The notes under the pieces: model-generated
Databases searched by the model: none
What the model saw: only the letters and a program-made list of their open reading frames with translations
What the model was told of the DNA's origin: nothing
Position numbers and translations under genes: made by a program
Assembly: GCA_003971905.1 (NCBI GenBank)
Contig: RSEE01000003.1
Span: 930,001-994,000, forward strand
Source: Moniliella sp. 'wahieum'
Taxonomy: Eukaryota
Reading direction: 5' to 3'
Length of the DNA: 64,000 nt
In this document: piece after piece, positions 14,993 through 45,671 of the stretch
Layout of the letters: every line of letters starts with the position of its first letter
Numbering within the stretch: position 1 is the stretch's first letter

Positions 14993-17900
14993 TTAGCGGT
15001 TGGAGAAGCGGAGGTACTTGGTGCACAACATGCAGACAACAACGTTGAACACGATGAAGGCCGACTCGTCTGAAAGGGGGAGGCATAAGTCAGTGGCTGG
15101 TAGGTGGAGACAAGGAGTCAAAAAGGTAAGGGGGGTAGGGAAACGAAACGTACAGCCAAAGTATGCGGCACGGTTGCCGGCCGAGATGGTCAGGGGAATA
15201 AAGAACTCGTCGCCCACCTTGAGAGAACAGTATGGCAGTCCGAGGTGGCCAATGGTTTTCCAGGTACCCACCAACTTCTTTGATGTAGTTTCCCATCCAC
15301 ATGTCGCACGTCTGGTTGCTGGCGGCTGACACGGCAAATTCGCTCGCGCTGCAGTGGACAGGTTGGTTGTGGAACTGGTTCGAGATAAGCGAAGCAATGA
15401 GGAAGCTGTACAAACACAAAAAGGTCAGTCCCCAGCTCAATCCAAACCCCCACAAGAGCGCCAGGAAAAAACACGTACCGAATGGGATTAACATTGTAGA
15501 GGAACTTGGAGAAGATGCGGTTGGTCATCTGGGGCGGAGGCACCATGACACCGCAAGTGAGCGAGAGAATTAGAGTGAGGAAAGGCACAAAAGCTGAGCA
15601 ATGTACACCGAAGGGCAGAAGGAGGCAATCATGGCGCCCACAGTGACCGAGAAGGCTTCCGTCATAAGCGACATGACAAAGAAGAAGCCGGCACGGTTGC
15701 TGTTGGGGTCAAAGCCCACCATGTAGTAGAGAAGCAGGAAGAAGACCAGAGCGCAGGCAATGCCGTAGGGAATCTCCGAAATGAGTTGCGTGAGCGCAAA
15801 CACCGTCCCACTGAACGTCTTACTCTCTCTTCACGAATCCAGACGGAACGGTTGGTGATCCAGAAGGGCATGATTTGCGCAATGATAATGGCCGGAATGA
15901 CAGCAAGCATGAACAGAGCGAACACCATGTACTGCACCGCCTCGACCGTGTGCTTGAGGCGAAGCATAAGCAGACCAGTCAACAACGCAAACGCCATGTG
16001 CTGGATGATACGCGTGTACTGGTAACTGGGCTGGCGCCACGTCGAGCGCATGGTGCGCTGCAGAACAACCAGGAATTGGGTCTTGAACGAAGCCGCGTAC
16101 TCACGTGTCGCAACCGTCGGGGCAGGCTTGGCAGCGCCCTCAGCGTTGATCTCAGCAATTTGCCGCAGGTTGTCCTGGTAGAGGTCCGACTCCTTGTACC
16201 ACTCTGCCCAGTCCTTGGGGCCCATACGGGGCTGCGAACCAGCACCAATCGCGTCCAGCATAAACTCGGCCGGGTTGGCGTCGTGCGGGGCGGGAGCGCC
16301 ACGCTGAGCAAAGTAATCCAAAATGTCCTGGGCATCGTGACCAATGGGGCCGAAGTAGACCACCTGGCCACCGCGCTGCAACAGCAAAAGACGGTCAAAC
16401 TGCTCAAACAGCAGAGCCGAAGGTTGGTGGATCGTGCAGAGAATCGTCATACCGTTGTCGGCCAGCTTGCGCAAGAGACGGCAAATCGTGTAGGCCGACT
16501 GACCATCCAGACCCGAGGTAGGCTCATCCAAGAAGCACAGCATCGAAGGCTTAGCCGCCAACTCAACGCCAATCGTCACACGCTTGCGGTCACCAACACC
16601 AAGACCAAAGCCAGGGAAACCAATGATGGCATCGGCCAAGTCGTTGAGCTCAAGCATCTCGATAATGTCCTCGACGTATTGGTCCTTGGCTTCCTTGCTG
16701 ACATCCGACGATTGACGCAGGTACGCCGAAAACCGGAACGCCTCCCGAACACTGCACATGGGCTCGTGAATGTCTTGCTGCTCGGCGTACCCACACTGGC
16801 GCTGGAACGAAAGATCAATGGGCTTGCCCTCATCAACCGGTCGCCCTCAATCACACCAATAGTCTTCCGGTCGGCCAAAACATCCAGTAAAGTCGTCTTA
16901 CCCGCACCCGAAGAACCCATCAGGGCCGTCATGGTACCACTTGACAAATCCATCGACCGAATCCAGCAAAAGCCGGTGGCCACCCTTGACAGGCACCGTG
17001 TACTTGAGGTTGGACCAGGTAAAGGCTTGACCCTCCACATCCAGAACCAAGTCGTCCTGTTCCTCCTTGCTCTCCATACGGGCTTCCTTACGCGTCTTCA
17101 AGCGCTCGTCACGGGCCTTCTCGTCCTTCGAAGGGGGCTTGGTAACGGTCAACGCAGCAGCAAACGAACCTTGAGTTTGCACCTCCACGGCCAGACATCC
17201 CATTGCGACGAACCCAACCAAAAAGGCGAAAAGGATACCAATGTTGCGCCACATCTGCCCCTCCTTGTACTGGAACTGGGCAGTGAGGTAGGTCATGCCG
17301 TCCACGATCGGGTTGCCAGGAGCAGCACCCGCCACATTGCAGATTTGGTTGGACGTGAGCTGGTGGGGTAGCCACGGCCACTAGGGACCAAGGACGAGCC
17401 AGCGCAAGTGAATTTCTTACGGCGGAACTCATTGATCATCAGAGCGCTAAAGGCGTAGTACACGGCTGAGAGAAAGTAGAAAATGCAAGGTTAGTAGGTG
17501 AAAGTAAGACACGACGAGAGAAGGGAACGTACGGTTCAAGTAACTGATCCAGTAATTCCACCGTGGCATCTTGTTCTGGGGCATCACATATCCAGCCCAA
17601 AGGACGAGCATGGAGATGATGACAGCTGCCAGACGGGCGGCACCGAAGAAGTTACGGCTCACAACCCCAAAGAAGGAGAAGAGAGCGCGGAATGCGTAGT
17701 AACTGACAACAACTGTCAACCACGCCGTCCAGAAAGCCGCAGCATTCAAACCTAGAATCAGACCAAAAACGTCAGTAGATGGTCGACACAAAAAGCAAAA
17801 CAGAGAAAAGACGTACGAAGACCAGCCATGAAGTAGATGATGATGATGAAGCGTCACACGCGGGATACCAAATGGCATGTCTGCACACAGACCGCCACGA

Positions 17901-21039: not shown

Positions 21040-22830
21040 GTCGACCGAGTTCGATGACTCGATAAGGCCTAAGGCCTAAGGCCGAAAGGGGAACGGGGAA
21101 GCTTGGGAGTGTGACATGTGACATGTGACGCCACACTGGTGTAGTGGCGCCGATAGTCCCAGCGGGAACCTTCTTCCAGTTCATTCCTTGCATTCCTCGC
21201 AAGATTCCTTCCTGGAGGGCAGAAATATTCTCTAGCCTCTGGAGCTCCTGCATCACGTGCCATGCAATACACCATCAAGTGCCTGCTCCCTGGTCCTCTA
21301 CAGGGAGCTGGCGGCTACCTCTGCTTGCACCTGAGGACATCCTTAGAGGAAACCATGCAGGCGCTGTGCAAGCACACCTTATCACATGTTTACACCCCAA
21401 AGCCTGAGATCGTTACGTCGTTAGTTACCAAGTTACTGAACGAGTTCCGGTTGCCGGTTGCTGGTTACACGTTACGTGATACGGTTACAGGTTGCAGGTG
21501 GCCTGTGAGGCCACCGGTGACATGGTGACAGTACCCAGCCACTGGCTTCTTACCTAGTTGCAGTCACCGGTCACTAGCTAGTCAAGCTTCAAGCTTTCAA
21601 GCTTTTCAAGTTCCTACGTGGTTTGAAACCTCCGGAAGTTGCCGTTTAAATTTTAGCGTTTAGCGGTTTAACGAATTTAACGTTTACTAGGTTTAACGTT
21701 GAACGTTGAACGTTGAACGCTGAAACGTTGAACGTTGAACAAATGTGCGTGAGTGGTGATCGATGGATCGATGATCGGTACCGGTAATTGCCTCATGCAT
21801 CATGCATCATGCATCATGCATCATGGCCTCGTTCCGCATCCTGATCGAACGATCACCGATGATCGGCCCAATACTGAGGTTCCGTAGATGTCGGCCTGGG
21901 GGCCGGGGCAGCCTTGAAGCTTGAAGCTTGAAGCGCTTGAAGCTTGAGCTTGAAGCTAGCTTGCAGCTTGAGCATGAGTTGGGGCGGGCCTGGACGGCGT
22001 GTGTACTAGAAAGGGCAGGGACTAGGGACTAGGGAAGGATCTGATATTCTTTCTGAAAGGAGTGCTGCGCACTGCACAGCTCGAACGCCACCTTCGCTGT
22101 TCCCTCGTCAAATTTCAAATTAAAAGCGGATGCATATGTCGCATTCCCATCACATGTCGCACGTCACGCGTCGCACGTCACATGCACGTGTCACATGCAC
22201 CCTGCCACCGCGTCCTGCGTCACGCGTCACGCGTCAGTACTCACTGAGTACTTCGTACTTCGTATTCAATGTGGCTTTCGCGTGTCGCATGTCACATGTC
22301 ACCGATCTCATCACGGACATCACATACAAGCGCCACCTTGGCAAGCTTGAAGCTTGAAACTTGAAGCTTGAAGCTTGAAGCTTGAAGCGCGCGGCTGCGG
22401 CCACGCGGCCACGGGCCGTTCGCTGAGGGGCCGAGTCATCAAGCTCATCAAGCATGCCGATCTCGATGACCATCATGTCGATGACCACGATCATCTACTT
22501 CCTTGCTTCTACCCCCCCTTTTTGCCTGGCGTTCTTCCAGTCTCCGGCCACGCCGCGGAGGAGCGAACGCCAGACGCGACGGCAGAAGGCGCTCCCCAGG
22601 TCACAGGAACCGTGAGCATGCGCGTGAGGCAGCAGTGGCCAGGATTGCCTGAAGATCCATGAGCGAGCGCTGAGCATACCTGAGAGGCCTGAGGACCTGA
22701 GGCCGGCCTGAGGCCTGACCCGTGCTTTTGAAGCTTGAAGCTTAAGACTTGAGAACTTGAGCGCCCAGTGCCCAGTGAGGGCCTGAGCTGAGCCGCTTTA
22801 GCTGAGCGCTGACGCTCACCCTTCGGTCGT
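21040..22830. repeat. Mosaic of period-7 palindromic micro-arrays
   Basis: (AAGGCCT)n 21064-21083; (ACATGTG)n 21111-21129; (AACGTTG)n 21695-21740; (CATGCAT)4 21794-21825; (AAGCTTG)n 21914-21960 and 22343-22388; (CACGCGT)n then AGTACT 22221-22252; AGGCCTG/AGCGCTG 22680-22812. Confidence 0.9.
21130..21301 (-). pseudogene. Coding relic of unknown family, copy A (inverted homolog of 26390-26548)
   Basis: Minus-strand translation CIAWHVMQELQRLENISALQEGIL...YRRHYTSVA; nucleotide homology to copy B. Confidence 0.6.
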
Positions 22831-22849
22831 ATCGGCTGTACTAGCAGCA

Positions 22850-25800
22850 CTTCCTCTCAGGGGGTACCGATTAGTATAACAGGGCTATTAGCAGGGTTAG
22901 CATCTTACCAGCCGATGGCGAGATAAGCCCCTTGCAGTCGCCAATGGCACTGGCGTTGGGGTTACCGGTTACATGCATTACATGATCGCCATAGGTTCAC
23001 CTTTCATCACAAGGCAATAACCAGAACGTTGGACTGGTCTGTCTGGTCGAAGCCGGACCAGACAAAGAAGGCAACAGAGACGTGCTTGCCCTCTGTCTCA
23101 TTGTTTGTTGTTCTCACCACACCACAGCGTCTACTGTGGTGCATCAGCCAGAAGGTTGGCCATGATGCATGATCCATCATCGACATAATCATCGCCTACT
23201 GTACCAGGCGCCACAATCAACGTCAACCTGCAAAACACACGACGAATAAGTAACCCAGGGTGACGGAAGAGCGAAGGCGGTCCATACTCGGGAGTGGGGT
23301 CTGTGCTTCTGATGAGAGCCCGATCTCGTACCCCTCTTTGGTCACCCGGTCGGTGTCCGCTCGAAGATCTGAGATTGGAGATCCTTGGGGACGGACATAT
23401 AAACTAAAAGGGATAGGAAACGAGGTGTTGAGAACCCGGATTACTTGTTACTAGCGACGGGTCACACGCACATATCCACCAGCTGCGGTATGACCCTGTT
23501 CTAAAGATCTTCCTTGACCCTTTTGTGTCTCCTTCCCTCATCGCGCGTCGTTACCGTGTGGTTGCATCTCCTTTGCCTCTGGTATATAAGGCACCATTCC
23601 ATATGCAGCCTGCATGAATACCATGTGGGCATCCAAGGCAATCCCCTCCTGAACGGAGCTTATTCCCCACGAATTTCTCGCCGTGTGCACTCTGTAGGGA
23701 CCACGGACAAAAACGGGGGTGGGCGAGCCTGCCCGTCAGCCTGTAAGCACGCTTTGTCTCTCTCGCGTGCTATATGTTGTGTCCACGACGGTCTGAACGA
23801 TGAACTATACTCGTGTATTAATACTCTGTTGCGTAATGATGCGTCGAAAACGAAGGATCGCACCGTCGATTATGTGTGGTGCACAATGTAGGCGGGATCT
23901 GTTCGTACGGCTTAGGGCATATCCATGTGTTTTTGCTTTCTTTAAATCCTGCCTGTATCCTGCTTTGAATTGCTTTGAAGTTGGACTTGTACCCAAAAAG
24001 ATGTCTCGGTCGGAGGTGAACTTCCTAACCGATGCATCTCATTTTCCCTGTGGGTTCTTTCATGTGTATTTATCGTTTCCTGCGTGGCTCAGAGCGGAGA
24101 GCACCTGCCATTATTCTTTAGGCTTTCCTCTGACTTTCTTGTTCCGGTAGTGGTGGTATGTAGGGAAGAGTTCCTTTTTCCTCTTTTGGTGTTCGCTATT
24201 CCTGAATTGCTGAGAGGCCTGCGGAGGTGTCATCGTGTGCCCTATTACCTCCTTTCTTGGGTTGTCTATTTTGTTTTTTATCCTGCCCCTGCGTATTGTC
24301 CCTGTTACAGGACGCTCCGGTTTTCTCCGGACGCTGAGTCCCGCATGTCGTAGACATCTCAGCCCAACGCATCAGTCCTATTGGACTAGCGAGAGAGAGC
24401 CACACGACACCTTATCGATTATCCATGCTGCCGATATCGTCCGCGGCCCGCCATGGTCGCATGGGCTCATCGGTACGATGCTTTGTGCCCATTGTGCACA
24501 TTACACCAGTCTTGGCAGGACCCTTCTTGCTGCGCCCGACTACGCAGCGTCAGAGCCTTTGAGAGCATGGGCTGTGCATTAGTCTTTGCCTCTCTGGAAA
24601 GGGCCCCGCATCCTGTTTATATACCTGTCACGAGGCACTTGGGCCTGGTTTTTCTGTTGTAGAAAAGCAGCCATGTCGAAGGCTTGATAGCTGTGGTCCT
24701 GGTCGAGTCTTTGGTCTCCCCGACTACCTCTCGCCCTTCCACCTTCTACAACCCTTACGCTTCCAAATTTACGACTTACGTTGAGTACGCTGCAAGCTGC
24801 GGTTGCTCTCATCAGTAGCGCTTGCTCTTTTTTGGACTCTGTCTGTTTTCGCCTACTACAGTATAGCGTACTGAGTGTGGTGACGCTGCGAGGAACAGAG
24901 TAACTTCGGAGTTCCTGGACCCCTTCAACCGGTCTGACAACTTACGTACGCGGCTGAAACCTCGGAGGGTCTGAGCTGCGGCCTTTGCACGCAGCTACCC
25001 AAACTATAGGGTCTCTCCCTCGCCTCTATATACCCGCTCGGTTAAACCAGGATCTGAAGCAGGACCTAACGAACGAGATGCCGATTGGCTGTTCAAGGGT
25101 TTGTACGTTATACCCCTAAACTACAGGGGGGAGTCCCACCTCGGGAACCTCTCCATGACAGTCCTCTTCTTGGCCCGTAGTGCTCTTTCCTCTGCCGAAC
25201 GGGTCATTTTGTCGACACTTTTGGGTAAAAGATGAGTGTCCTTCCTTCGTCAGTCAGAAAAGCTACAGCCTTTTGAGACCCACAGGCACCGCCCCGTTCC
25301 TCTTCGTCCTTTATCCTGTATACCTTAGCTGTGTACCAGACCACATGTTCCAGTACCGACACAGCTCTCGTTGATCTTCGGCAGTTTTCTCTGCTGGTCT
25401 GCACATCCCCGTTTCCGTCAAAGTCCACAGTATCTACGATCCTCTCGGTACGGACCCTCTACCATAATCCTATGCAAGAGTTGAGTTGATCCGATGTCCT
25501 GCCAGGGGTGTGACCCTCTCTTCTCATGCCTGCCTACCTTGAAGTCAACCTTATAGGGAGTACTGAGATATATATATACTACACGCTAATAGTAATCACC
25601 TTCTTGCTTGACCGGGCGCATACAAAGCTAATACGTTTTGTCACCCTAAGCGGCGCCCCCGCCTCAAGTGGGCATATCCTCGTTTCCAGCTCTGTTCCGA
25701 TCCGACAATCCCGTTCTGGCTCAATAACCCGCATGAGTGGCCTTCCCTCATACTATTTGTATGGTTGGGCCTCATCCGTGGGTTCGCCCGTGACAGTGGG

Positions 25801-27230
25801 TGCTCAAAGTGAATGGATTTAGGCCTGCAATGTTTTTTGTGATGATATGTTGTTGGTGGTCACAGATAACAGTACAAGTCTTCAATTCCCGATCCATTGT
25901 GTTTCTTCTGCGGTATAGAGAGCAGTTCTCAGAGGTGACCGCCGGGTGAAAAGAAGCATTTTGCGGGGATACGATGCCGTTTTATATGTACCTTGAGACA
26001 CCTCCGTCTCCGTTAGTTTTGTCATAGGCGTCAACATCGCAACGTCTCACTGATGCAAATAACATTCCTTTCCGCTTTACCTCACTTGAAGGACTCCAAC
26101 AAAAGTCCAACCTTCATCTCCTCGTATCCAACTTGTCTCTCCGTACTGTATCTTCATCCTATACCTTAACGGTAACATCCAAGAACATGACCCACTTGAG
26201 GCACACTATATATTCTTCTTGTTTCCGTTTCCTCTATATATTATCTTTCCGTCGTAGGCATATCGCTCGTAGTCTCCGCTTGTAAGACCGTGGGGGGGAC
26301 GGGGGGTAGCTTTCCGACTGGAGATCGTCCCTGCCCATACGAGCGTGAGGATAATAACGTCTGTGGCCAACAACCCACAAGCGGGGATTGTACAGAACCG
26401 AGATCATGCAGTTGAGGGGTGTGTATCGCATCGCATAATATGAGCTACAGAGGCTAGAGAATATTCCTGCCCTACAGGATGGAATATTCGAAAGAATGAG
26501 CCGGAAGGTTTCGGGATTGGGCTACCGGTTCCACTACACCAGTGTGGCACCATAGGGATGCGTACATGGGGAGCAGACCAAAAGCTACCGTGAAGTCACA
26601 GTGTTAAAGTGACTTTTGACAACGAGTAGCACCGCCGCTGAGTAAGGCAAGGGCTTTGCCGGAGTAGAGGCGGCAGAGAGTTATAGGTAGGGCGAGGAAT
26701 AGGCCTGGATCAGAATGTAGCAGGCTAGAAGAGAAGGTTTGCTCACGAGTCCATGATGGGAATGGTTGGCGGCTTTTGGCCATCATCAATTATAGAATCA
26801 ACAACAGACACAATATTCACAGTATGGACAGGAGCGAGGAGATTGGTCACAAGCGGCGAGGAAAAGAGAAAATAGAGTATACATAGTCTGTACTACGCAT
26901 TGTCTTCCTCCAGACCCGTCTCGTCCCATCCTTTTCCTCTACAGTCGGCTCTCGTTTTATTGTGGATATAATATGGGTGTCGGGAATGGAGCGACTCCCG
27001 CACCGCTTCGTGCAATGTGCTAGAGCGGACTTGGTGCGGGTGCGAGCCATCCTGGGCCAAGCGAGGACATTAAACCACACTTGCATCATCCCATACGTAG
27101 GGTGGAATGGCACAAGGTCGTGGATGAGGAGGAGACCAATCTGAACCTGCTTTCATTTTGTCGACGAGCCGAAGGCACACAGCTGTGTGATATGGGATTG
27201 AGGAGAGCCAGGTGTGGTTGAGCGCATTGC
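22850..27230. other. Lower-GC, ORF-poor decayed island (possible transposon or pseudogene remnants)
   Basis: Spot-counted lines are ~38-48% GC, visibly lower than flanking genes; longest ORF only ~125 aa; purine skew switches strand near 26280. Confidence 0.6.
26390..26548 (+). pseudogene. Coding relic of unknown family, copy B
   Basis: Plus-strand translation ELQRLENIPALQDGIF...YRFHYTSVA; shares CCACTACACCAGTGTGGC and CAGAGGCTAGAGAATATT with the reverse complement of copy A. Confidence 0.6.
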
Positions 27231-27468: not shown

Positions 27469-29385
27469 ATGATGGCCACAGAGATTGGAGCTCCCTCCCG
27501 TCTCTCTCACTTGTCCGATTTTCTCGAGGTGAGCCTCACCGGCTCAGGCAATGTTCGGAAATGTTGCATCCGGCCCGGCCCACCGGTCGACTGAACATTG
27601 AAACATTTACGTTGAACAGTGGACGCCCGGTTGTCCCCACACCGCGACAACGCCAGAATGTGAAAGACCCCACATCCACACCCCCACCATCTCGCCGTCC
27701 CCGTCGCGTCTGGCCCCATCTCGCCATGCGCTCCTGGCGCAACCCCGAACGTCGCGACAGCGACGCATCCGTAGCCTCCCTCACCCCCTCTTCCACCACC
27801 GCTTCCACCACCGCTTCCACTGCCTCCCCTGCCCTCTCCCGCAAACTTCTCGGTTCGCTTGCGGCCATTCGGGCGGCCCCTGAAGCTCTGCCTGCGGCCG
27901 CTCACAAAGATCCTCTGAGCCTCATCATCACCACCAAGAACTTCCGCGCGTTTGTTCAGAAAGCCGGGCCTTCTTCTGGTTCCAAGACCACGTTGAGGCG
28001 ACGCTGCTGTGGGATGACTGGGCTTGGACGCTGATGTGGATGGCGCTCTGGGCTGCCATCGCGCTCCGGCCCAGCCTGTTGCTTGCGGCGCCCCCGCCAT
28101 CTTGACCATCATCCTCTACAAGACGCATCGCTCTCGCTTCCCCAACGCCTACCCACACACTGGCTCCTGGCATCTCTCGCCCCCGGCCAACGCACTGGCC
28201 TCGCTGCTTGCCCAGCCGACTCATATGGACGACCCTAACCCCCTGCCCCCGCTCACGCCCACCCCTGCCGCAGAGGGAAGCATGCAGTTCCTCCAGAACT
28301 TACGTGATATTCAGAACATGTACATATGTCTCCTTCTTTTTCTCTGCTCCCTTCCCTTGGTTGACTGATGTTTCCTTGCGCCCAGGATGAAGATGATTCC
28401 GGACGGATACGATGCCATTTCGCTTTTGGTGCCTTACTTGAATTGGTCGGACCCCACGACGTCCATGTTGCTACTGAGGATCAGCATTGTGGGGACGGTA
28501 GTGATGCTGATTTTCGGCCATCTGGTTCCGATCCGGATGTTGCTCCTTGTGGGCGGGGGGGTGGCATTGGCGGCGAACCATCCTTGGGTCAAGCCGTTCG
28601 CGCACGGCCTCACCCACCCTGACCAGGAAAAGGGAGAGACGGCTCTGACGCCCGCTGCGGCGCGCAAGGCTCGTGCTGCCCACCAAGTGTTGCGACAAAA
28701 GCGATCGGAAGCCGCGCATGTGGCCCGGACCTGGCTCGAGTTGGACCAGCTTCCGGACCAAGCTTGGTCCCATGGCTGGCGTGACGTGGAGATCTATGAG
28801 AACGAGCGGTTTGTTGCGCGCACCCCACGCAAGGGCGCCCAGCAGCCCGAAGAACGAGAATGGAGCGGCGAGTACCTGCTGAAGTCCGACCGGCGCGCCT
28901 GGACCCGCTCCCAAGACGGTTGGTCCCGCCGGGCCTCGACACGGTGGCTCCGGGGTCGGAGAGTATCAGCGCCTGGCACCTCGCTGCTGCCCTCCCGCAT
29001 GGCTGGGCCTGGCTCCCCGGCGAGGACTGGAGGGTGGATGAGGCAGGGTACCTGGTCCCCCGTCGGGGCGGACGAGCATGGCTGGGTGTACACCGACCGC
29101 GACTGGCATTGGCCTGCGCCATATGCGTATCGCCACACCGACCAGCCCAACGAAGCATTGGATCCCTCCGAGGCTCAGGCAACCTTGGACCTTGTCCAGG
29201 CCCAGGACCCGTCATTGGGTTCCGACGACGCAGCTACGTCCCCTCTGCCTGGGGCCAGTCTGCTTCTCGGGTCGATGGCTCGGACTTTCCGCTGGCGCGT
29301 GGACAAACATGGCGCAGCACTCACTCGCCGACGGCGCTGGCTGCGCCGTTGCGTGCGGGTAGAAGCGAATGAGGCTCCTTCGTGA
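27469..29385 (+). CDS. Pex24/Pex28/Pex29-family peroxin (reticulon-like plus dysferlin domain)
   Basis: DPLSLIITTKNFRAFVQKAGP, FLQNLRDIQNM, LNWSDP, VEIYENER, WSPVGADEHGWVYTD, LTRRRRWLR; introns near 27529 and 28320; start uncertain. Confidence 0.85.
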
Positions 29386-31765: not shown

Positions 31766-32416
31766 GGCCAACGTCCCTTCAGTCCCTCCGCAGGCTTAGG
31801 AGTTCCGTTGCTTTGTCGCATCTGCTTTCCTTGCTCCCCAGCCTTAGATATACTTTGTTGGCGCGACTGTTGGCTGCTTGATGTTCCTCATCTGTAAGTA
31901 GGCGGTACTGACTTGCTTAGTACGTCTTAGTCCACGGCACTATTGCGATTGTGTCATCGATGTCATCCTCGAGGTCCATCATGCCTGTATCAGGCTCAGG
32001 GTCTCATCGACCATCATGCATCAGGTTAAGACCGCAACCATCACCAACGCGTTAGGCTTATAGATTTCCAGAGGTTCAGTACATGATGTGCATGATGCAT
32101 GATGCATGACCACCCAAATCGGTTGGGTTCCTCGGGTCTTACAAAACGCGGGGGCGGGGAGACAAAAAAGAGGCGTATAGAGAGTTGTGTTGATGAGCTA
32201 GGTGGCTCATGCTTTGGCCAATGTTCCTTCAGGTCCTCCTCAGGCCTAGGAGTTCCGCTGTTTTCCCTCTCCTGTTTTCCTCCTCGTCCCGCAGCTTAGC
32301 CCCCGATGGCGACTCGCTGCTTGATGTTCCTCTGTAGACATTGCTGGTTGCCACACCATCACCACCACCATGCGATTGCATCACCCTCGAGGACCATCAG
32401 GACTCCAGGTCTCATC
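31766..32416. repeat. Diverged intergenic direct repeat (31766-32008 / 32216-32416)
   Basis: Collinear shared blocks ggccaa.gt.ccttcag, taggagttccg, gctgcttgatgttcctc, tgcgattg, cctcgagg.ccatca, ggtctcatc. Confidence 0.8.
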
Positions 32417-33153: not shown

Positions 33154-36100
33154 CTACTTGCGCGGCGCAAACAGCCCACTCAGATCCGACACGGGCTCGT
33201 CCCTGGGCGCACGCGCACGCGGGGGCGGGTACCCTCGAGCGTCGCGTGCCTCAGCGCCCCAGCCGGCTCGCGCCAATCGCCGCGCCCCGGCGGACCCGGT
33301 GGCGCGCGTCGCGGTCGTCGCCGGGGTACCGACGCTCGCGAGGCGGCGGCAGGCGCCCCTCGCCCCTCCCCATGGGGAATCCGGGCGGACGCGCACGGCC
33401 ATCGTCCCGACTCGGCGGGTCGTCGCGGTACGGGTACGGGTCCCGCAACCCGCCCATCCGAGGCGGGGGCACGCGGTACGCCTTGTCGCCTGGGTACGAA
33501 GGCGCCCGTCCCCTCTGACCCGCGTGCTCCGTCCCACCCATTTTCGCGCCGGGCCGAGTGGGTTGAATGGACCGAATGGGCCGACGAGGGCGCCAAAGAG
33601 AAGCTGCGTGCCAAAGACGACGTCCATTCGCCCCACTTCTTGCCCGGCTTGCTCGGGGCGTCCCGGTCCGTCGGAAGCGGATGTGCAAAGCTAGACCGAT
33701 CCGGGGACATCCAGGCGCCGCGCCCGGCGCCCATCCCTCTCCCATCCCCATTTTCTGACATGGGGCGACGAGGGGGGGGCAGGTAACGGTCTCCTGGGGC
33801 AGCCTCGCTGTGGGTCGACAGCGTCCGGGTCGCCCTGGGACGCGGGCCCGAGGGAGGGCCGAGGGGGTAGGGGGCCGACCCGGGTCGGAGCGCGGATGAT
33901 GTGGGCGGTAGGACTGGGACCGGGGACGATCATTGGCCTTGGCCACGTCTTCTTGTTCGCGACGCGGCACCGACCAGTCAGGGAGGACGTTGGTCAGTTG
34001 CTGTCGGAAGGCAGGGAGCAGCCGACGGGTGTGCAGCATGAACGGCGGCGGATAGTCCGTGCGCAAGGGCACGTAGCGTAACTCCTTAACCTGTTCTTCG
34101 GCCATCATTTGTTGGCCCGTCGGGTCCAACTCGTCGTACCACAGGTTCGGGTAGACTTGCGCCTCGGTCCCGCGCGCTTCGCTCCGGCACAGACCGTCGT
34201 CGGCACGTACCCCGTGCATACGCATCAAGCGATACAGAAGCCGGTCCACGTCGCTGGCCGCATTGGTAAACGCTGGATCGGGCGGTAGGTTCTCCACCCC
34301 CAATGCAGCCATTTCTTCGTCGGGGGAGTAGGCACGTTTTTTTCCTTTGCCCCCCACGGCGCTCCGCCCACCATTCTCCGCCTCCTCATCGGCGTCAGGC
34401 GCAAGGCCAAAGAGAGTTCCCGCCTCGCCTCCAACTCCTCGCGCACTTTTTGCCACATGGTCCAGGAGGCAAGAGAGTCCACTTCTTGGAGGATACGCTT
34501 GCGGTCCTCAGGCTTGATCCGCTCGTCGGACAAGAGGGTGTCGACGTTGATCTCAATGTTGGTTCGGGTGCGATCGGCGGGGTGCATCGGGTCCGAAGTG
34601 GCGAGGGCAAGGTAATCGGTGCCCAGCTGGACCCACTCCAACAACGGTTCGGCCACGGGAGCCAGGTCGTGCATGAATTCCAGCAAGTGGTCTTCGTGCC
34701 GCATCAGCAGCGCCACCCACTCACCTGGCCCCGCCTCATCGGGATTGGAAACCGAACGTTGTCGCACCGCGAGCAAGTCGTCAATGAAGTCCTTCACATC
34801 CCCCACCGCACGGGAAAGATCCACCTTGGCCGACGTGGCAGCGCGCAAGCCATCATAAAAGACGTATTCCAGCAGGTCCTTCACCATCGTCGGCAGCAAA
34901 GGACCCAGCGCAACATCCAACAACTCTTCCCTGTCGCGCGCACGACGCGCCTCGCGGAGCAACAGTTTCAGTTGGGCAAAGTCGTATGCCATATCCTCTT
35001 CCTCCTCCGTCAGCGTCCAACTTTCGTCCTCTGCATCGTCCGCCGTAGCGGGCGGACGTGCCTCCCGGAACGCATCCTCCGCATCTTCCACGATCACCTC
35101 ATCGTATCGGCTCGATTCGGGGGGTACGCAGCATCCACGTGGCCCCGCCAGGGGCTGAGAGAAAACGCGCGCTGCATATCCAGTACCAAGTCGCTGTCGA
35201 CAGGCTTGAGCAGCGTGCGTGCTGCCTCCTCGTCGGCCCATGACCCAGCGGAGGCGAGTCGAGCAGAATGACGGTCACCACATCGTCGCCCGACTCGAGC
35301 GTCTTGCGTTCGACCGCAGCCCGCTCCACACGATCGGCAAAGGTGACATAGTCCATCAAACGGTTGGCCAACGGGCCTTGACCGGCCTCGGCCAAGGAAG
35401 TGCGAAGCGGACGAACCAGTGTGGTTTTGATTTGGTCCATCTCGCGCGTGAGCATGAAACCGAGGATGCGTTGCAGCAAGCTCTGGGCCTTGTCCCTTCT
35501 TCTTTCTCGGACGCCGAGGGGCGCGCTAAGAGCAAGCTCAGCAGACTCTGCACCATCACATGGGGAGGGTGGACATTGGAACGAAGAAGCTGCTTAGCGC
35601 CCCAGTAAGGAACAGGGCATGAACCGACTTGAGCTTTTTCACCCAATTGGTCCGCCTCGGGTGAGAGAATGAACAAGTCGTACAGTGCCGTGGCCAAGGA
35701 GTGGCGAAAGTGCGCCCAGGCACGCTGGAGACGCGGTGGCAAATCCTGCACCCGCGTCACACCCAGAAACACATCCCACATGGACTCCAGGCCATCCTCT
35801 TGCTCAATCAATTTCTCCTTTAGGGCAGCGGCGTCCTTGGCCTCTTGCCGCGCGCGCTCGCCTGCCAAGCGCCATTGCCGATCACTGCGTCTTCCAGATC
35901 CGCATCGCCCGAAGAGTTGGACTTGGTGCCGGGCGCAAAGAGGGCATCTATGTCCTCCAGCAGTTCGGGGAGAGCGATGGGTTTGGCCAAGCCACGCTTC
36001 ACCGTTCCCTTGCCCCATTGCTTTCCCACACCCCACTCTTCCGTCCCCTTGAGTCCGGGGCCGGGACCGCGCAATTCGCCTTCTCCGCGGATCCCAATGC

Positions 36101-37809
36101 CACGGGCAAAGAATTTGCCCAAACCATCCCATCGTGAGAGCCCAGATACGACGTTGTCAACTCGCTGCGTTCGAGCGACGTGCTCAAGTTGCGTGCGGCC
36201 AGCTCATCCAGCAGCACTTGGACGCGTTGTTGCCAAAACTTGCTAGGTGCCGTGTCAAGGCCGGGGAAGGTGCGCAGATGAGTGTGGAACAAATGACGGA
36301 GGATGACCGGCTGGGTCACCCGCTCCGTTCGACGCACCACCGCATCGTCGCCCCTGCTTCCCGCAGCCAGGCCATCGGTCGCATACGGGTCTTCGGCCGC
36401 AGGAACCCGGGGGAGATCTTTCGTGTATTCGTTAATCAGGTCTTTGCCCACTTTGCCCAGTGCGGGTCGCAGGGAGCTAAAGGGGGGACCATATACAGTT
36501 AAGGCACTCAGCTTCTCCAATTGACTCGCTTCATGGCCCAGTTGAAGCGCGACCAGGGCGCGCACGAGATAATGCCGCTGCTGTGGAGTGAGCTCGATAT
36601 CTTCGGGCTCCTCATCGAGAGCAAGATCGTCCATCTGGCGAGTGGGCACTGCAGAAGAAATATCTTCTTGACTGAATCGATCGCCAGCGGGGGCTGAGAC
36701 CCACCGTTTTTTGACGAGGGGCTAATCGGGTAGTCGCGGGAGGGAATGGAAACTCATCGTCCAGCTGTGTGCTTGGAGTAGTTGATGTTTCATCGATCAA
36801 GTCCGGGTCTTGATCATCTTCGGGACTTCGGCGACCTCTTCCACGAGATGCAGTGGGCACACCAGGTGAAGAGCCTCTTCGAACGAGGGTGGAAGAGGGG
36901 CGGCGGATCTTTTGGTAGAGCCGGGAATAGGGGCGCGAACATCCTGCCACGGAAAAAACAAATAAACAAACAGACAAATATGATTAGCCAATCCATACCA
37001 AGCGGAAACCATACATACATCCTCCTCCTCTTCCTCCTCTTCCTCCTCGGTCAGGGGCTCATCAGCGTAGTGAGGCATGGGCTCCCTCATGGTCGGGAGA
37101 GGGATCCCACCTGGGCGGGTTGGCGTCGCGCTCGTCATAGTCGTCATCGTCGAGGTACGCATCAGAGCGCATGTTGGACGCAGTACGAACGGGTTCCGGC
37201 GAAGGGGAGCGGCGGGGCCAGGTGGAGAGGCTGTGAAGGAGGTGTCGTCATCGTAGGCGTCCTGGTGCCTGCCTGGGGCCGATGTGATGGGCTGGGCAGC
37301 AAGAGCGGAGGCGTGGCGGGCTGCGCGCCGGGCAATGACGGAGTTGGAGCGCGAGGGGATCGGGGGACGGGTGCACCGAGCCTGCTGTTGCTCATGCGGC
37401 GGGCAGTGCGGGACGGGAGGGAGTCTTGGTCGTCGTCGCGGCTGCTTGCGTTGGCGTTGCATGCGGAGGAGGGGTCGAGGGGGCGGGGCGGTGGTGGGAG
37501 AAGGAGCGGGGGCGCGGGCGGAGTCGGATGGGTAACCCGAGGCGTCGACCATGTCGAGGGGAGCGAGGGCGGCCTGGTAGGGGTTGGGGGCGCTGGGCTG
37601 CGAGCGCTGGGCAGAGGCGGTGCTGTCGTCGTCGCCAAAGTCGATGAGGCGGGCGGAGTGGGCGGGCGACGAAGGCTGGCGGGGCGGGGCGGACGAGGCG
37701 GGTGGGGACGTGGGCGGGGCTGCGGGGTGCGGGTGTGTGTGTTGCCGTGGCCATGGCCAGAGGCGCGCGGGGCGGCGCGGCGGTAGTACCCGTCGTGGCC
37801 GATGGGCAT
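33154..37809 (-). CDS. PXB + DUF3818 (Ypr097w/Lec1-family) protein with long disordered termini
   Basis: LTPQQRHYLVRALV...YGPPF, ILRHLFHTHLRTFPGL...FWQQRVQ, PYWGAKQLLR, LLLARP, LLMRHEDHLLEFMH, TRRLLPAFRQQL; intron near 36947-37020; ends approximate. Confidence 0.75.
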
Positions 37810-38692
37810 GGCGGGCAGGGAGGTGGTGGGGGCGAGGAGCGAGAAGGAAGAATGCCGGCGCCTCCTGGCTGTGCTTCGCCCCGCACGCGCTGCTGCGGCC
37901 GCCTGCCCGCAGCCGCCCTCCCCACACGCCCCGCCCCACACAGCCCCGTGCCGCCCCCCGGGTGTGTCACGTGCGGGTGCTGCCGCTGATGCACGTGGGA
38001 TGCGTGATGGTCGCGTGTCCCCAGCAAGCAAATCCAAACACCGCACCGCCGCTGTTTCTTTCAATCCAGCATTCTGCCCTCGCCGACGTGTTCATTTCCC
38101 GCCTGCGCCACGCGGCCACGCAGCACAAATTACCCACTGTTTCTCCTTCGCTCGCCCCCCTCCATTGCCATTCGTCCTCTCCCTTGCCTCCTCTGCCCTC
38201 CCGACGCTCCTCAGCTCCATCGAGCCGCATTTCTTCTGCCCCATCGGCTGCAGCGACGGGCCGGGGGGCGAGCAGTGCTGTCTATTATTCCTTTTGCTTG
38301 ACTGTTTTTTGACTCTCATGCCAGCCCCGCCTGGGGCATACGTTTTGCAACGGGAGCCATTGATACAGTAGCCTGCCAAGCAAGCTGCTGGCATGCACGC
38401 ACACAGGCAAAGTACCCTCTTATCATAGCTCACTGCTTCCTCTCAAATCCCCTCGCTCGTTCGCTCGGCCGCATGGATCCTTTTGTAGTCATCCTCATCA
38501 CGTACTAGGTTGCTCTCGGCCCCTGTCACTGACAGTCGCGTCTCACTGCACCAAAGCAACAGGGAAACCCGAGGGGCGTTCCATACTATTTCCAAGCACA
38601 AGTGAGAAGAAAAAAAAGTACTTTGGACGGTTATGGAATCTGACGGTCGACGTTAGCAACAACGATACGTTCCCGCTTGACCAAAACATAGG

Positions 38693-39740
38693 TTAAAGAG
38701 TAGCCGTGTCAAACACAAAGCGGTACTTGACGTCGCTCTTGTACAGCCGGTCCCACACGTGGTTGATGTCCTTAAAGCTGACCAGCTCGTAGGTGGCCAC
38801 AATGTTGTGCTCCCCGCAAAAGTCGAGCATTTCTTGCGTCTCCTTGATTCCGCCAATGGCCGAGCCGGCCAGGATGCGGTTGCCAAAGACGAGCGGGGCG
38901 GTGTTGAGGTTGGTAGGGCCAATGTGGCCCACCACGGCCATCACACCGTAAGGCTTCAGCAACGACAGGTACGGCCCAAAGTCGTGGTCGACACTGATCG
39001 TGTCAATCACAATGTCGTAAGAAGAGGCGGCGGCTTGGAATTGCGCGGCATCGGTGGTGATCAAGAACTTGTCCACACCCAGCTCCTTGGCCTCTTGCGC
39101 CTTGCTCATCGAACGCGAGGAGAGAAACTTCAGCGCCCATGGCCTTAGCCAACTTGATCGCCATGTGGCCCAGGCCACCCAGCCCGGCCACCAATACCTT
39201 CTTGCCCGGACCGGCACCGAAGCGCTTCAAGGGTGAGTAGGTGGTGATACCAGCGCAAAGCAGAGGCGCTGCCCCAGCAGGGTCAAGGTTCTCAGGCACC
39301 TTGAGCACAAACTTGCCGTCGACCACGATGCTCTTGGAGTACCCGCCAAACGTCAGAGATCCATCAATCTTGTCGTGGCTAGCGTAGGTGAGCACGGGGC
39401 CCTTGACGCAATGAATTTCGTCCCCTTCTTGGCAAAACGCACAGAGCTCGCTATCCGTTACACAGCCCGATTGGACCATGCATCCAACACCGACCAACTC
39501 GCCCGCCTTGAACTTGGGGTCCTTCGACTCGGTCACCCGCCCAATAATCTCGTGCCCTGGCACCAGAGGGAACGGAGTAGGACCCCAGTCGCAGTCGCGC
39601 GAGTGCGTGTCCGACATGCAGTACCCACAGTGAGAAATGGCAATCGATACGTCCCGTCCCGAAGGTCGCGGCGCTCAATCTTGCCGGGGCCAAGGGGCCC
39701 TTGGGCTCCATGCTTGGTACACGTCGACAGTGGTAGGCAT
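38693..39740 (-). CDS. NADP-dependent zinc alcohol dehydrogenase, cinnamyl-ADH/YahK/AdhC type
   Basis: CGYCMSDTH, PLVPGHEIIG, GGYS, APLLCAGITTYSPL, GLGGLGHMA, GSAIGGIKETQEMLDFCGEHNI, KSDVKYRFV; no intron seen in the CDS. Confidence 0.92.
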
Positions 39741-39748
39741 AATAGAAT

Positions 39749-39875
39749 CTGAAGAGACGGGGCCCAGTCAGTCGCTGGAGCAAACAGTGGATGCGACCGT
39801 TGTGTACACACAGATAGGAAGGAGCGGTGGAGAGAGATGGGGAGCAAGGCTGTTGGTCCATGGTGGGCTATATAA
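39749..39875 (-). promoter_or_regulatory. TATA box (39868-39875) and putative 63-nt 5'-UTR intron (39749-39811) of the ADH gene
   Basis: Minus strand TTATATAG; GTGTGT...CTGAC...CTCTTCAG ending 8 nt before the ATG. Confidence 0.5.
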
Positions 39876-40004
39876 GGCGGCGCATTGGGGGGTGCCAGCA
39901 GGATTGATTGAGATAGTATAGCAGCGAACCGAAGGGACGGAAATCTGGTTCAGATCGTCAGCCTAGAAACGACCCACACACTCCCCTCCTGCCGCAACAC
40001 CTCC

Positions 40005-41865
40005 AGCCAGCGCTCAGCGACTGAGGGCCTCAGCGCTGAGTCTCGGCGCTCAGCCCACCCACCAATTGGCAACCCACATCACGCGCACGCGGGATGCATC
40101 ACTAGTGCATCAGGCATCGTGCACATGCATCGGTCACCGAGCGGCCCCGCCATTCATCGATCAATCGATCATTCTGCTTTGCTCTTGCCCGGAAGGTCAA
40201 GCTCAAGGGCTTCGAAGCGGTGTCACACAAACTTGAAGCGACTCGCCCCTGTCGGGGCGTTCCAACGGGCCCCGCGCAACACCGCGGCACCAATTTGTCT
40301 GAACGCGCGAACCCTGCCAACCCCCTCCCACAGCGCACTGGCTCTTGCCATAGCAGGTCGTTAGTAGCTCTCGTCACGCGTTCGACGCCTCTGGACTGAA
40401 GCCACGGCTAGTAGCTGGCGTAGCTTGGCGTAGCAGCTGCTCGCCGTACTGGGGCATACTGGGCCGAACGACAGACTCCATGGAAATGATGGCGTTTGGC
40501 GCTGACGCGGATGTTTAACGTTGGAGGCGGCGCCTGTGGGGCCTGCGGCCTGAGGCCTGTCTGATGCCTGAGGTCAGGGCCTTGCGGCACACGACACCCC
40601 TCTCGACGATCAATTGGGCACATGCGACCCACGACACACACGGGGGGCAAGTACTGCAAGGTACGGTCTGATGGATCTGATGGATGATGGATGATCGATG
40701 ATGGGCTGATTCAGGGTCTATTTGTATATGAGCGCTGGCTGAGCCGCTGAGCGCTGAGCGTATGTGCATGACGCGCATGACGCATGTGCATGACCGAGTA
40801 CCCAGACTCAGTACTCACTCAGTGCGGAGTGTATTCCTGTGCTGGCAAGGTGTCGTCGTCCGCAAGGTTTTGCTTCGGCTTCCACAGCCGCCGAGCGCCT
40901 ATCACACGTATCACGAGCCTCCCGAGAACACCCTTGAAGCTTGAAGCTTGACCTTCGCTCCGCCCTTTTCAAATACCTAGTATCTCTCGGCGTCATCGGT
41001 TCGACTCGTCTCTGCGCCACAGCTTAGTGAGGCTCAGCGGTTGAGACGTTCCCAATATCTCTACGCCCGCCGCCAGCGCGTCCGCCAGCACGAGGAGCCT
41101 TCAGGAAGCGCCGACAGCTTGAAGCTTGAGAAGGACGCTAGAAGGACTCGCTCCAGGTCGCGGCCTCTTCGGCGCCTAAGCATAAAACGTCCACAAATCT
41201 AAGATCTGTTTTTCCGTCGGGGACGGTTGGCCGGTGCACCGAGGGTGAGCCTCAGCCTGATCGCTGAGGTTGAAAACCCGGAACGGGGAACGTGATGCAT
41301 GATGAGCGATAGATGATGCCCATGGGTGGATGATGCATTGGTGGGCAGGCCCAAGAAGAACACGGGGGTAACGGCGACATGGACCCCGAATAACGGCGAT
41401 AGCTGGGGATAAGCGATAAGCGCCATAAGCCATAAGCCAGACGCCTATGGGTGGCCGAGCCAGGCTCAGCGGCTGACTCGGATTCCAAATCAGCGCTGAC
41501 GCTGACGTGTGACGCTTCTGGCGCTGAGCTCAGCCGGCAACCAGAAACCCTCCGCGGCGCTGACACATATCACGTGACACACATGACATGTGACATGTCA
41601 CATGCATCACATGTGACACGTGATGTGCATATGACACGATGACGAAAGACGAGACCCGGGAGCACCATCTCGATCAAAGCTTCAAGCATCGAGAGGATCG
41701 ATCAGGATCTGGATCGACCTCTTGAACGTAGCCCACGTTCATCTCCAACACGCTCAACGGTTCAGCAGCTGTCTTGACCAGCTTCAAGCGATCCTCTTCC
41801 CTCATCGTCAACGTCTTGATCCCTCCATGATGCATGATGCATGGTACGCATGAGGCCTGAGGGAG
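40005..41865. repeat. Second mosaic of palindromic micro-arrays (upstream of the ADH gene)
   Basis: ctcagcgctgag ~40029; tgagcgctgagcg ~40749; ttgaagcttgaagcttga ~40934; acatgtgacatgtcacatgcatcacatgtgac ~41586; catgatgcatgatgcatg ~41826. Confidence 0.8.
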
Positions 41866-42148
41866 ATGAGCACAAAAGCAATAGTAATTCGAAGACGTGT
41901 GGCCCGTGCTGGCGATGATGAGGGAGGGGGGCTGAGAGTATACTATACGAATGCTAATAAGCGCTTAATCTCCAGGCAATGTAAGTCCAAGCAGACGTTG
42001 GCAGGTCGGGCATGATGGCTATGCGGAAGACTATATGAGCGCGGGGCGACCGGGTGGGAACCACGGACGCAGAGGCCCTCGAATCCGTGCACACACTCTT
42101 TGTGGCAAGCTTGGTAGCTAGTCACCATCCATTGCAATGCAATCCTAG

Positions 42149-45100
42149 TTACTTCGCGGATTCGCGGAATTGCTCGAAGGAAGCCTTGGCATCCAACAGC
42201 GCCTGCCGCTCCGACTCGTAGTTCTTCAAGCTAGTCTCCACCTGCTGCTTGATCTGGTCTGGAGTTTTTTCCCACTGGGCCGTGCGCTCCCGCTGCTTGG
42301 TGAGACGGTCAATGTTGCTCTCAGCGAGGGTGAGCTTCTTGTCCAGCTTGGCCACCTCGGCCGAAACGTTGATCCGGCCGCGCACGAGCACATGTGCACG
42401 CAGCCCGGCCTGGATCGACGCTACGGCGCACCGCCCGGGATCGCCTTGCCTGTTTGCTCGGGCGGACCAATCAGGACCTCGACGCCCTTGGCGCCCTTGA
42501 TCAGCGTCTCAATTACCGACTTTTGCTCGTGCAGCACCGCGCCTAGGCTGGGCGACTCGGCCTCGAGGTACATTTCCAGCTGCTTGATCACCCCATACTG
42601 CATCGCCACCCCACGCAGCGTCTTGACCGACTCGAACAGCAGGTCAAAGTCGCGCCTGCTCGCGCCGTCCTTCCATTCGGGGTGGGCGGCCTGGGCCGGG
42701 TAGGCCGTCAGCGCAATCGTCGCTGCCGTCTCGCCTTGGCGGCGCGGCAGACGCTGCCACAGCTCCTCTGTCACAAACGGCATAAATGGGTGCAGCAACT
42801 TCAATCCCTGGTCCAGCACCGTGTACAAACGTTTCTTGCGCCGAAGCTTTCGCCTGGGCTTCGGCCGAGCCAGCCACCGTCGCACCCGGGTGGTCAGTGA
42901 TGGGCTTGATGGCCTCAATGTACACATCGCAAAAGTCATACAGCCAGAACTGGTACGCGGCATGGACCGCCTCCATAAATGTCGCTGGGCCAACGCCTTG
43001 TTCAGTTTGCCAATCGTCTCGTGCAGCGAGGCCAGGATCCAGCGCTCGACCAGGCTCTGGCGCTCTTGTTGCCCGGCTGCGCCGCGGCGGTGACCGAGGC
43101 AGGGGTAAACCCATCGAGCTTGAGCAGCGCAAACTTGGTTGCGTTCCACATCTTGTTGCAAAACTTGCGGTAGCCTTCCACGCGCAAAATGTCCAAGTTA
43201 ATGTCCGCGTTGGGCGTGGTGTAGGCGACCAGAGCCAGGCGGAGGGCATCGGTGCCACATTGAGGAATGCCCTTGGGGAAATCCTTGGTCTGCCCTGCCC
43301 GGGCCTTGGCCACCTCCTTGGGATCCAAATTCCCATTTTCCAACTTGGCATGCAATGCGGCCAGGTCAATGCCCTCAATCACGTCAATCGGATCAATCAC
43401 GTTGCCGAGCGACTTGGACATTTTGCGGCCGTGGGCGTCGCGCACCATACCATGACAGAAAATCTCGTGAAAGGGCAACGTGTGGGTCAAGTGCGCTCCA
43501 AGCATCACCATTCGTGCCACCCAAAAGTAGATAATGTCCCGCCCCGTCTCGAGAAGCGAATTGGGGTAAAAGTGGGCCAGATCGGGCGTCTGGTCCGGCC
43601 AACCCATCAAGCTAAACGGCCACAGACCCGAGGAGAACCACGTGTCCAGTACATCCTCGTCTTGTCGAAGCGTAAACTTCTTGCCGCCCGCACGTTTCTC
43701 CGCCTCGGCCTGGGCCTCTTCAGGCGAGCGAGCAACAATCCAGCTGGCACTGTCCAGTTCATCCACTTCCTCGCCCTCCACCTCGAGAAAGTAGGCAGGA
43801 ATCCGATGGCCCCACCACAGTTGGCGACTGATGCACCAGTCGAGAATGTGGTCGAGCCATTGGTAAAACTCATTTTTGCTTGTGTCAGGGCGGATGGTCA
43901 GCCCTTGTTGGCGGGCTAGCGCCACCGCCTCGTCAGCCAGCACCTTGGACTTGACCCACCACTGTGGTTTCAGCACCGGTTCCACCACGTCGCCCGAGCG
44001 AGAGCAGATGGGCACGCTCATCGGGTTGGGTTGTTCTTCAATGTACAACTTTTTCCTTGAGCGCTTCGACCACCGCCTTACGTGCCGACAGCCGTTTCAT
44101 GCCTTGGAACGGACCTGCCTCTTCGTTCAACGTACCATCGTCATTGAGAATGTTGACAAACGGCAGCTGGTGGCGCACGCCCACATTAAATCGTTTGGGT
44201 CGTGCGCCGGGGTGATCTTGACGGCACCCGTACCAAACTCCATGTCGACCGCCTCGGCATCCAACACGATCGGTAACTTGCGGTCGGGGAAAAAGGGATG
44301 CTGGACAAACTTGCCGTGCAGATGCTTGTGGCGCGGATCGTCAGGATGGATGGCAACGGCCGTGTCGCCCAGGATTGTCTCGGGACGCGTGGTGGCGATC
44401 CGGAGCAACCGCTGCTCCACCGGCGCGTCGGCGGGGGCATCGGCAATGGGATAGTAAAAGTGGAAGAGCACACCAAACTGAATCTTCTCATTGCCGTACC
44501 CAGGTAAGGGAGAGGAAGGTGGGGCCAGCCAGTTCCTTCTGTTCCACCTCGAGGTTGGACAGGACGTGGTGAGGTAGGAAGACCAATTGACGATGCGGTT
44601 GGCGCGATAAATGATGCGTCGTTAAACAGACGGACAAAGGCCTCGGTCACCGCACGCGAACGCGTGTCGTCCATGGTGAATGCCTCACGCGACCAGTCGT
44701 AGGAGGAGCCGAGGCGGCGCAGCTGCGTGCCGATCGTCGCCGCATACTCGTCCTTCCAGGCAAACACGCGCTCTAGAACTTGGACCGCCCCAAGTCGTGC
44801 CGGGTAAGGTGCTCAAACTTGAGCAGCCGCTTCTCCACCACGGCCTGAGTTGCGATCCCGGCATGGTCAAAGCCGGGAACATAGGACGCGTTTGCCCTGC
44901 ATGCGGTACCAGCGACAGAGAGCGTGTCTTGGATGCTCATGGTCAGCGCATGCCAATGTGCAGACTGCCAGTGACGTTGGGCGGCGGGATGGGGATGACA
45001 AACGTCTCCTTTTGTACGGGTCCTGCTCGGTGATTGGGCGCGGAGCAAAGAAGCCGCTCTTCTCCCACCAGGCGTACCAATACGACTCGACCTTGAGGGG

Positions 45101-45461: not shown

Positions 45462-45671
45462 CCCCTTGTTGGCTGGTCGCGCGTGCGAGGCCCAGATGGG
45501 GGCTGAGCACTTGCGATCGACTTGTGCTCTGTGACTCAACCAGGCTTCGCGCTGTGCCATATATGTTCCGGCGGAATGATTACGAGGTTAAACGAGATGT
45601 GCTGGAGGGCTGAATACGAGGCAATGCCAGTACTATTATGGGTATCGTCGGATCGGACCAATGGGCCATCC

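Follow-up and report, generated by a model that had tools for sequence, protein, structure and literature searches.

Genomic setting of the 7-bp arrays

The question raised by this locus is how a series of short intergenic arrays can share one geometry, a 6-bp palindrome plus one spacer base repeated every 7 bp, when the palindromic core changes from array to array. The locus lies at 21040-22830 of the window, which is the whole stretch of 64,000 nucleotides analysed here. The arrays named in the original prediction were all found within a few bases of the positions given, although the examples at 22680-22812 are degenerate, single-unit cases. In 21040-22830 there are 30 ten-mers of the form TNA-(4-bp palindrome)-TNA, with N identical on both sides and with 10 different cores, as opposed to a mean of 0.08, 0.27 and 1.29 such units in Markov shuffles of the region of order 1, 2 and 3 (maximum 6 in 1000) and 0 units for each of the control triplets ANT, CNG and GNC.

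The window is carried by contig C3 of an assembly of 69.5 Mb in 223 contigs, and its genes are fungal. Its valyl-tRNA synthetase is ~70% identical to smut and agaric counterparts and was placed among the Ustilaginomycotina, on a long branch, in a one-gene tree. The arrays sit between two recognised genes, in DNA that also contains solo LTRs:

15662..17878, minus strand: ABC (ABC2_membrane) transporter exons, nearest recognised gene on the left side
28387..29385, plus strand: Pex24p-like ORF, under the Pfam cut-off, nearest recognised gene on the right side

Contig C45 carries a second copy, 82-95% identical, of much of window 3326-42037, and more distant copies of window 34700-54000, about 70-85% identical, are present on C49 and C149. 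Several diverged copies of one gene block mark the assembly as hybrid, polyploid or mixed, and they make it possible to compare empty with filled sites. The arrays are common to the second, diverged contig, with unit-size differences, and to judge from these sequences their presence there argues against a basecalling artefact. C45:145001-153000 matches window 37689-40531, which includes the alcohol dehydrogenase region, twice in tandem, a local duplication. The reading frame appears to shift inside exons of the valyl-tRNA synthetase and Pex24-like genes (window 42170-44048 and 27700-28300), a sign that single-base indels may have gone uncorrected in the assembly.

The arrays of the region are listed below, where forward and mirror type denote the two products described in the next section and a strand is named only where one applies:

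21040..22830: 7-bp scar hot spot, intergenic; 19 chains, 30 units, 10 cores, 134 TNA sites
21061..21083: TAA/GGCC chain, forward type; the left flank GA is not the core's mirror; one unit more than the C45 copy
21580..21604: TCA/AGCT chain, degenerate in part; directly upstream, the C45 copy carries a TCA/CTAG chain
21661..22929: segment missing from the C45 copy, which has ~140 unrelated bases instead
21691..21740: TGA/ACGT chains, about 7 units, one interrupted
21791..21825: TCA/TGCA chain, four cores, forward type; left flank CC
21913..21957: TGA/AGCT chains
22218..22245: mixed chain, in register, with cores CGCG, CGCG and GTAC
22290..22303: TCA/CATG single scar, mirror type
22343..22388: TGA/AGCT chain, 6.6 units
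22678..22814: degenerate TGA/GGCC, TGA/AGCT and TGA/GCGC units

Apart from the array at 21110-21130, most arrays of 21040-22830 fall in the segment missing from C45 and have no counterpart there, so that they could not be polarised. At the C45 site, a stretch that we take to be like a tRNA 3' end lies beside an apparent LTR end, which suggests a retroelement-linked deletion.

A rule of seven added bases

Comparison of the duplicated copies showed that a site ab-TNA-xy gains 7 bases, five as a direct copy and two inverted from the flank, which results in one of two products, ab-TNA-xy-y'x'-TNA-xy or ab-TNA-b'a'-ab-TNA-xy. The two bases adjoining TNA supply the sequence of the core, the duplicated block ends exactly 2 bp on each side of TNA, and a single site can extend leftwards by a mirror core and rightwards by a forward core. 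Since the cores vary and follow from the flank, the added bases are inverted flank and not element remnants. The statement in the original prediction that one transcription-factor motif does not explain the arrays holds. Its suggestion of a protein reading TNA triplets is not supported, as such a protein does not account for cores predicted by their flanks. Of the two symmetry axes, the informative one is the even axis in the middle of the 4-bp core and not the axis on T-N-A.

Single events are 12-mers rather than direct duplications of odd palindromes; in them, the period-7 flank extension was (0,2) in 54 and (2,0) in 48 cases, with (0,0) in 29 and (2,2) in 9. The single-core chains of the 710-kb sample described below match one flank only in 248 of 371 cases, and among 15 mixed-core chains both flanks match in 10, the left only in 3 and neither in 2. 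In the mixed chain at 22218..22245, the left core fits the left flank and the right core does not fit the right flank.

For a footprint spectrum, each case at non-palindromic TNA targets in 710 kb was modelled as a 7-bp target whose ends are either trimmed or extended by P nucleotides. The +7 products were by far the most frequent, with 161 cases of (+2,-2) and 154 of (-2,+2) as opposed to 2 and 2 at the ANT control, followed by +8 products with one base trimmed (31 and 35; ANT 5 and 1) and by +9 products, in which the whole 7-bp duplication is retained with two inverted bases between (20 and 19; ANT 1 and 3). Six control triplets gave 2-11 cases of +7 products each, compared with 161 and 154 at T-N-A; C-N-G and G-N-C triplets are twice as frequent as T-N-A, yet unused. 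Scars with the hAT-type offset at TNA numbered 0 in the same 710 kb.

In 47.9 kb of paired contigs, 26 indels of 7 nt were counted, together with 13 of 6 nt and 15 of 8 nt. The rule is overlapped by 15 of the 26 (one of them in a doubtful alignment) and by three of the four 14-nt indels, and the remaining 11 of the 26 do not fit it. An exact non-palindromic empty site was recovered in six cases, at window 24626, 32191, 32227, 40933 and 41851 and once on C49/C149. These empty alleles lack the inverted dinucleotide, so the units were not born by duplication of pre-existing sequence alone. The original prediction that plain slippage is insufficient is thereby borne out, as it is by the lack of CNG and GNC enrichment at period 7.

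The same events are seen in a dispersed repeat:

24303..25161: solo LTR, ~860 bp, at least 42 matches, with copy-specific 7- and 14-nt scars

Among 31 copies of this LTR, four of six distinct 7-nt insertions fit the rule exactly, one fits with a changed N and one does not fit, and the 14-nt insertions fit in three of three.

Birth of an array within a solo LTR

The order of events can be read at the array at 21110-21130, which lies at the left end of a solo LTR:

21105..21109, plus strand: left 5-bp target duplication GGGAG of the solo LTR, repeated at 21303-21307
21110..21302, plus strand: solo LTR, ~180 bp (TG...CA), added units included; family of at least 40 matches
21110..21130: TGA/CATG chain, mirror type, at the left end of the 180-bp solo LTR
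26389..26548, minus strand: second LTR copy of the 180-bp family, inverted; the two copies together resemble terminal inverted repeats

Six of the seven other LTR copies read start with a single TG-TGA-CG, and the seventh is altered there, so the array postdates the insertion of the LTR. At this place the window is longer by 14 bases, i.e., two extra units, and the C45 copy by 7, i.e., one. On the evidence of these copies, the array was born after LTR insertion from a non-palindromic seed through two mirror events.

The stretches 21130-21247 and 26442-26548 had been considered as the terminal inverted repeats of a 5.4-kb transposon; they belong to two opposite solo LTRs with 5-bp duplications. 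Another solo LTR of 210 bp and of a different family, also with a 5-bp duplication, occupies window 32190-32410, and its C45 copy carries a forward scar at the first TGA. In an all-versus-all comparison of the sample, LTR-type repeats with 5-bp duplications were among the matches listed.

Distribution in the genome

The region is a dense patch, or hot spot, of a genome-wide pattern. The predicted enrichment was recovered in 400 kb of spaced stretches, where 112 of 224 exact period-7 arrays are of the palindrome-plus-one kind compared with 2.6 in shuffles, and the triplet controls agree with it: a sample of 580 kb contained 315 exact period-7 arrays, of which 139 were odd palindromes centred on TNA, 7 on CNG, 3 on GNC and 1 on ANT, and periods 5, 9 and 11 gave one TNA case each. 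Ten large contigs, sampled over 710 kb, contain 438 chains, which by increasing length number 371, 55, 10, 1 and 1; extrapolated to the assembly, this would correspond to roughly 35,000-43,000 scar chains. One 20-mer from an AAGCTTG array alone has 1042 matches genome-wide (control 0). The units are clustered, with 46% of gaps below 200 bp compared with 10% expected (710-kb sample), and the window's 52 units all lie outside kilobases with Pfam-matched ORFs.

Some sequences are under-represented in the 710-kb sample. Cores of A and T only are rare among 443 scars (AATT 3, TATA 4, ATAT 8, TTAA 11), and at TGCA and AGCT cores an A/T spacer is nearly absent (1 of 48 and 3 of 39, respectively).

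In metagenome data, AAGCTTG runs occur in unrelated contigs. The 120 loci inspected, 40 of which are only about 600 bases long, show at most 2 other cores, and the multi-core rule was not seen at them.

A transposon family with a 7-bp TNA-centred duplication

On contig C11, two ends 4.85 kb apart have an inverted repeat and subterminal repeats in common. A search with the terminal pattern, in which the seven flanking bases were left free, yielded 17 ends, all of which were also obtained by DNA similarity, and two more were read directly, for a total of 19. The triplet T-(G/C)-A stands at -5 to -3 in 18 of them. In a separate set of 18 matches, six were not family ends by DNA similarity (control 9) and were excluded from the end counts; TNA stood at -5 to -3 in one of these six.

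An exact 7-bp nn-TNA-nn duplication flanks five of the six two-ended copies (on C20, C23, C29, C34 and C35), which measure 378 bp and 4.86-4.97 kb. In the sixth, C11:228241-233089, the flanks differ and represent two distinct nn-TNA-nn sites, possibly through recombination between copies or rearrangement. The exceptional end, C8:478682, belongs to the same insertion as C23:153491 and carries, in comparison with it, two additional bases where the duplication meets the element end; these are identical both to the inverted flank and to the first two bases of the element. They possibly are P nucleotides from an aborted excision, which is a suggestive reading only. The left flank on C8 also holds a mirror scar. 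Five long copies share 99% identity across the 1.8 kb compared, and the family moved recently.

With regard to the CACTA/EnSpm (CMCT) group, all 19 ends read CT before CACTG where termini of the CA..TG kind would be expected, and the duplication is 7 bp long rather than 2-5 bp; short units are repeated inside both ends, as is typical of subterminal repeats in this group. The interior, of which 1.8 of 4.9 kb was read in one copy, consists of short ORFs and a nested repeat, and this 1.8 kb gave no Pfam transposase hit and no intact transposase. One ORF relic leads to DUF4218-bearing clusters (score 0.93; the family is found on 12% of members) and weakly matches a Transposase_21 locus (E 7e-4), and it has neither a Pfam hit nor a protein homologue at E<=1. 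Going by these sequence features, the family may be described as CACTA-like, with a DUF4218-like gene relic.

Genes of the Transposase_21 (CACTA Tnp2) type are present at three loci, two of them found by Pfam and the third by protein search (C17, C62 and C34), and no element ends were found for these three. One of them has a 351-aa open frame, and C17 and C62 are copies of one locus. Genome searches with Pfam for hAT, MULE, KDZ and DDE_Tnp_4 returned none, with positive controls silent in three of five, including hAT, so that these negatives do not establish absence. No TIR element with a 7-bp TNA duplication was encountered in 988 kb of loci, which gave array self-matches only.

At window 32191, the scar is exactly as predicted from the target of the C29, C34 and C35 copies. 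No pair with the element in one copy and the scar in the other was present in the 47.9 kb of paired copies, a sample far too small for this purpose. The family targets nWTSAWn at 10 of 12 independent sites, and this motif is found at only 43 of 315 scar targets, under the 18% background. Because the scar targets are without this preference, the visible family alone does not account for the scars, and about 12 insertion sites are seen compared with the extrapolated tens of thousands of scar chains. Other or extinct families, or survival bias among copies, are needed to explain them.

Proposed origin of the arrays

We consider it likely that the 7-base arrays are repeated excision footprints of a cut-and-paste transposon at ab-TNA-xy, formed via flush flank hairpins; the transposon behind the scars probably belongs to the CACTA/EnSpm-Transib (CMCT) group. 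Two features of such footprints of DDE transposases are found here, namely a direct duplication, as the scar variants end at the same 7-bp block as the element's duplication, and added bases inverted from the flank. Insertion would first generate ab-TNA-xy [element] ab-TNA-xy, as observed in one family. On excision, each flank would be sealed into a flush hairpin, as by RAG and Transib; the flush form is suggested by P nucleotides with an even centre, together with the lack of any hAT-type offset scar. A host nuclease of the Pso2/Artemis type, for which a DRMBL match is present in the genome, may then open the hairpin ~2 nt from its tip, to go by the published behaviour of such enzymes. Of the two resulting 4-nt overhangs, end joining would keep one and trim the other, which gives either of the two +7 products observed, and the dominance of +7 may perhaps be due to a 1-nt T:A microhomology within the symmetric TNA.

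The scar would be a new target, and repeated visits in the same open intergenic patch would result in arrays of the observed pattern, with up to two cores in register. At a palindromic site, cohesive overhangs would give +7 directly and thus extend the array. Growth by re-hit rather than slippage would be in keeping with the rates: the step from one to two cores occurs in 55/371 (15%), close to the hit rate of the hot spot (19 chains at 134 TNA sites), so that re-hits could suffice. Slippage probably adds to the longest arrays. Most likely, thousands of short repeats in this genome were thus written by a transposon and not mainly by copying slips.

A related possibility is a domesticated or free transposase-like nuclease that makes a 7-bp staggered cut and hairpins and leaves no lasting cargo, the elements merely sharing its target. 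The scars exceed the elements thousands to one, the W-flank preference of the visible family is absent from the scar targets, and the repeats seen in the sample are of the LTR type, all of which would suit a cargo-free enzyme. However, elements with exactly this duplication exist and were recently mobile, and few mobile copies together with extinct families could leave many scars over time, so we regard such a nuclease as unlikely. There is a small but appreciable chance that the scars were largely written by a CMCT/RAG-like enzyme, possibly domesticated, that makes 7-bp staggered cuts, forms hairpins and rejoins at TNA all over open intergenic DNA. Tens of thousands of self-extending microsatellites would then have an enzymatic origin not described before, and the elements would be relatives or passengers of that enzyme.

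The original prediction suggested a structure-driven generator; a hairpin-type generator is supported, but fold-back at TNA is not. In replication template switching at T-N-A mini-hairpins, two bases would be copied backwards and synthesis would restart five bases upstream; a single +7 product can formally be written in this way, and inverted bases templated by the flank do occur. If structure alone drove the fold-back, any X-N-X' centre would serve, whereas only T-N-A is used, even though C-N-G and G-N-C are twice as common. Inversion through both axes would give complementary spacers, yet the region has 30 units with the same N and 0 with complementary ones. The inverted part is constant at 1-2 nt, the products that keep the 7-bp duplication entire and add P bases (20 and 19 as opposed to 1 and 3) require a 7-bp block, and an element with the identical 7-bp target exists; fold-back is improbable in general and, as the only source, largely refuted. 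Slippage on odd palindromes already present, whether ordinary or hairpin-stabilised, would fit the unit-size length differences at arrays that are already palindromic and the AAGCTTG runs in unrelated metagenome contigs, but not the non-palindromic empty sites, the one-flank-only match of most single-core chains, the lack of CNG/GNC enrichment at period 7 or the restriction to two other cores at most across the 120 metagenome loci. As an origin it is refuted, with very little probability left to it, and it is possible as an extender of long arrays. That the units are binding sites for a protein reading TNA triplets at 7-bp spacing would be in line with their clustering (46% compared with 10%) and their position away from the window's recognised coding ORFs. 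Selection for binding, however, would not turn a core into a copy of its flank, and the units arise copy-specifically in dead LTRs and differ between paired contigs, which makes this reading extremely improbable.

If repeated excision is the correct explanation, tandem repeats arise by a route besides slippage or selection, namely through repeated transposon visits, each of which leaves a constant 7-base scar that is itself the next target. The scars would then record cut-and-paste activity, which usually escapes notice, densely and in datable form, and would serve as a natural read-out of how hairpins are opened and ends joined in a fungus. A CACTA/Transib-like lineage would also be indicated, whose 7-bp duplication lies beyond the published range of 2-5 bp.

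Comparison with known systems

The fungal CACTA/EnSpm and CMCT elements (EnSpm, ESTA, Plavaka, CNEST) resemble the present family in their TIRs with CACTG near the end, their subterminal short repeats and the DUF4218-like relic, DUF4218 being a domain that occurs in CACTA ORF1 (PMC8978399). CMCT elements also have motifs in common with Transib and RAG1, and those described mostly have CA..TG ends and duplications of 2-5 bp (PMC12730594), with 2 bp in CNEST (PMC12810828). In contrast, the family described here ends in CT-CACTG and duplicates 7 bp.

Flank hairpins are formed by hAT, Transib, MULE and RAG (PMC5499845), and footprints with P nucleotides made via such hairpins are known from the hAT element Ac/Ds, in which the complement of the neighbouring base forms the centre of the scar (PMC5873905). 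By length of duplication, the rust-fungus hAT7, with 7-bp duplications in basidiomycetes, is also comparable (PMC12730594). The hAT pattern differs from the one found here in its complement-centred P nucleotides, as there are 0 such scars at TNA.

PIF/Harbinger elements prefer targets with a central TNA-like motif. Their 3-bp duplication (PMC12730594) cannot supply two flanking bases that are both duplicated and inverted. The Pfam search of the genome gave no DDE_Tnp_4 match. The scars are not a hAT footprint, a Harbinger footprint or, by origin, a slippage microsatellite. P-nucleotide footprints as such are known. In the literature searched, which leaves most subscription journals outside, no description was found of a CACTA-like family that duplicates 7 bp around TNA, of its scars as genome-wide arrays or of 7-bp EnSpm duplications.

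Transib elements duplicate 5 bp. In V(D)J coding joints and Transib excision, the flank hairpin is opened off its tip and filled in to give P additions of 1-2 nt (PMC2715118; PMC5499845), which the present scars resemble; normal V(D)J P additions comprise at most 2 nt in one study (PMC2715118), and the hairpin cut made by yeast Pso2 lies 2 nt 3' of the apex (PMC3299998). By analogy, the scars would work like RAG/Transib coding-end repair, from which they differ in their highly stereotyped product (+7), in the 7-bp duplication that underlies it and in their repetition as arrays throughout the genome of a fungus.
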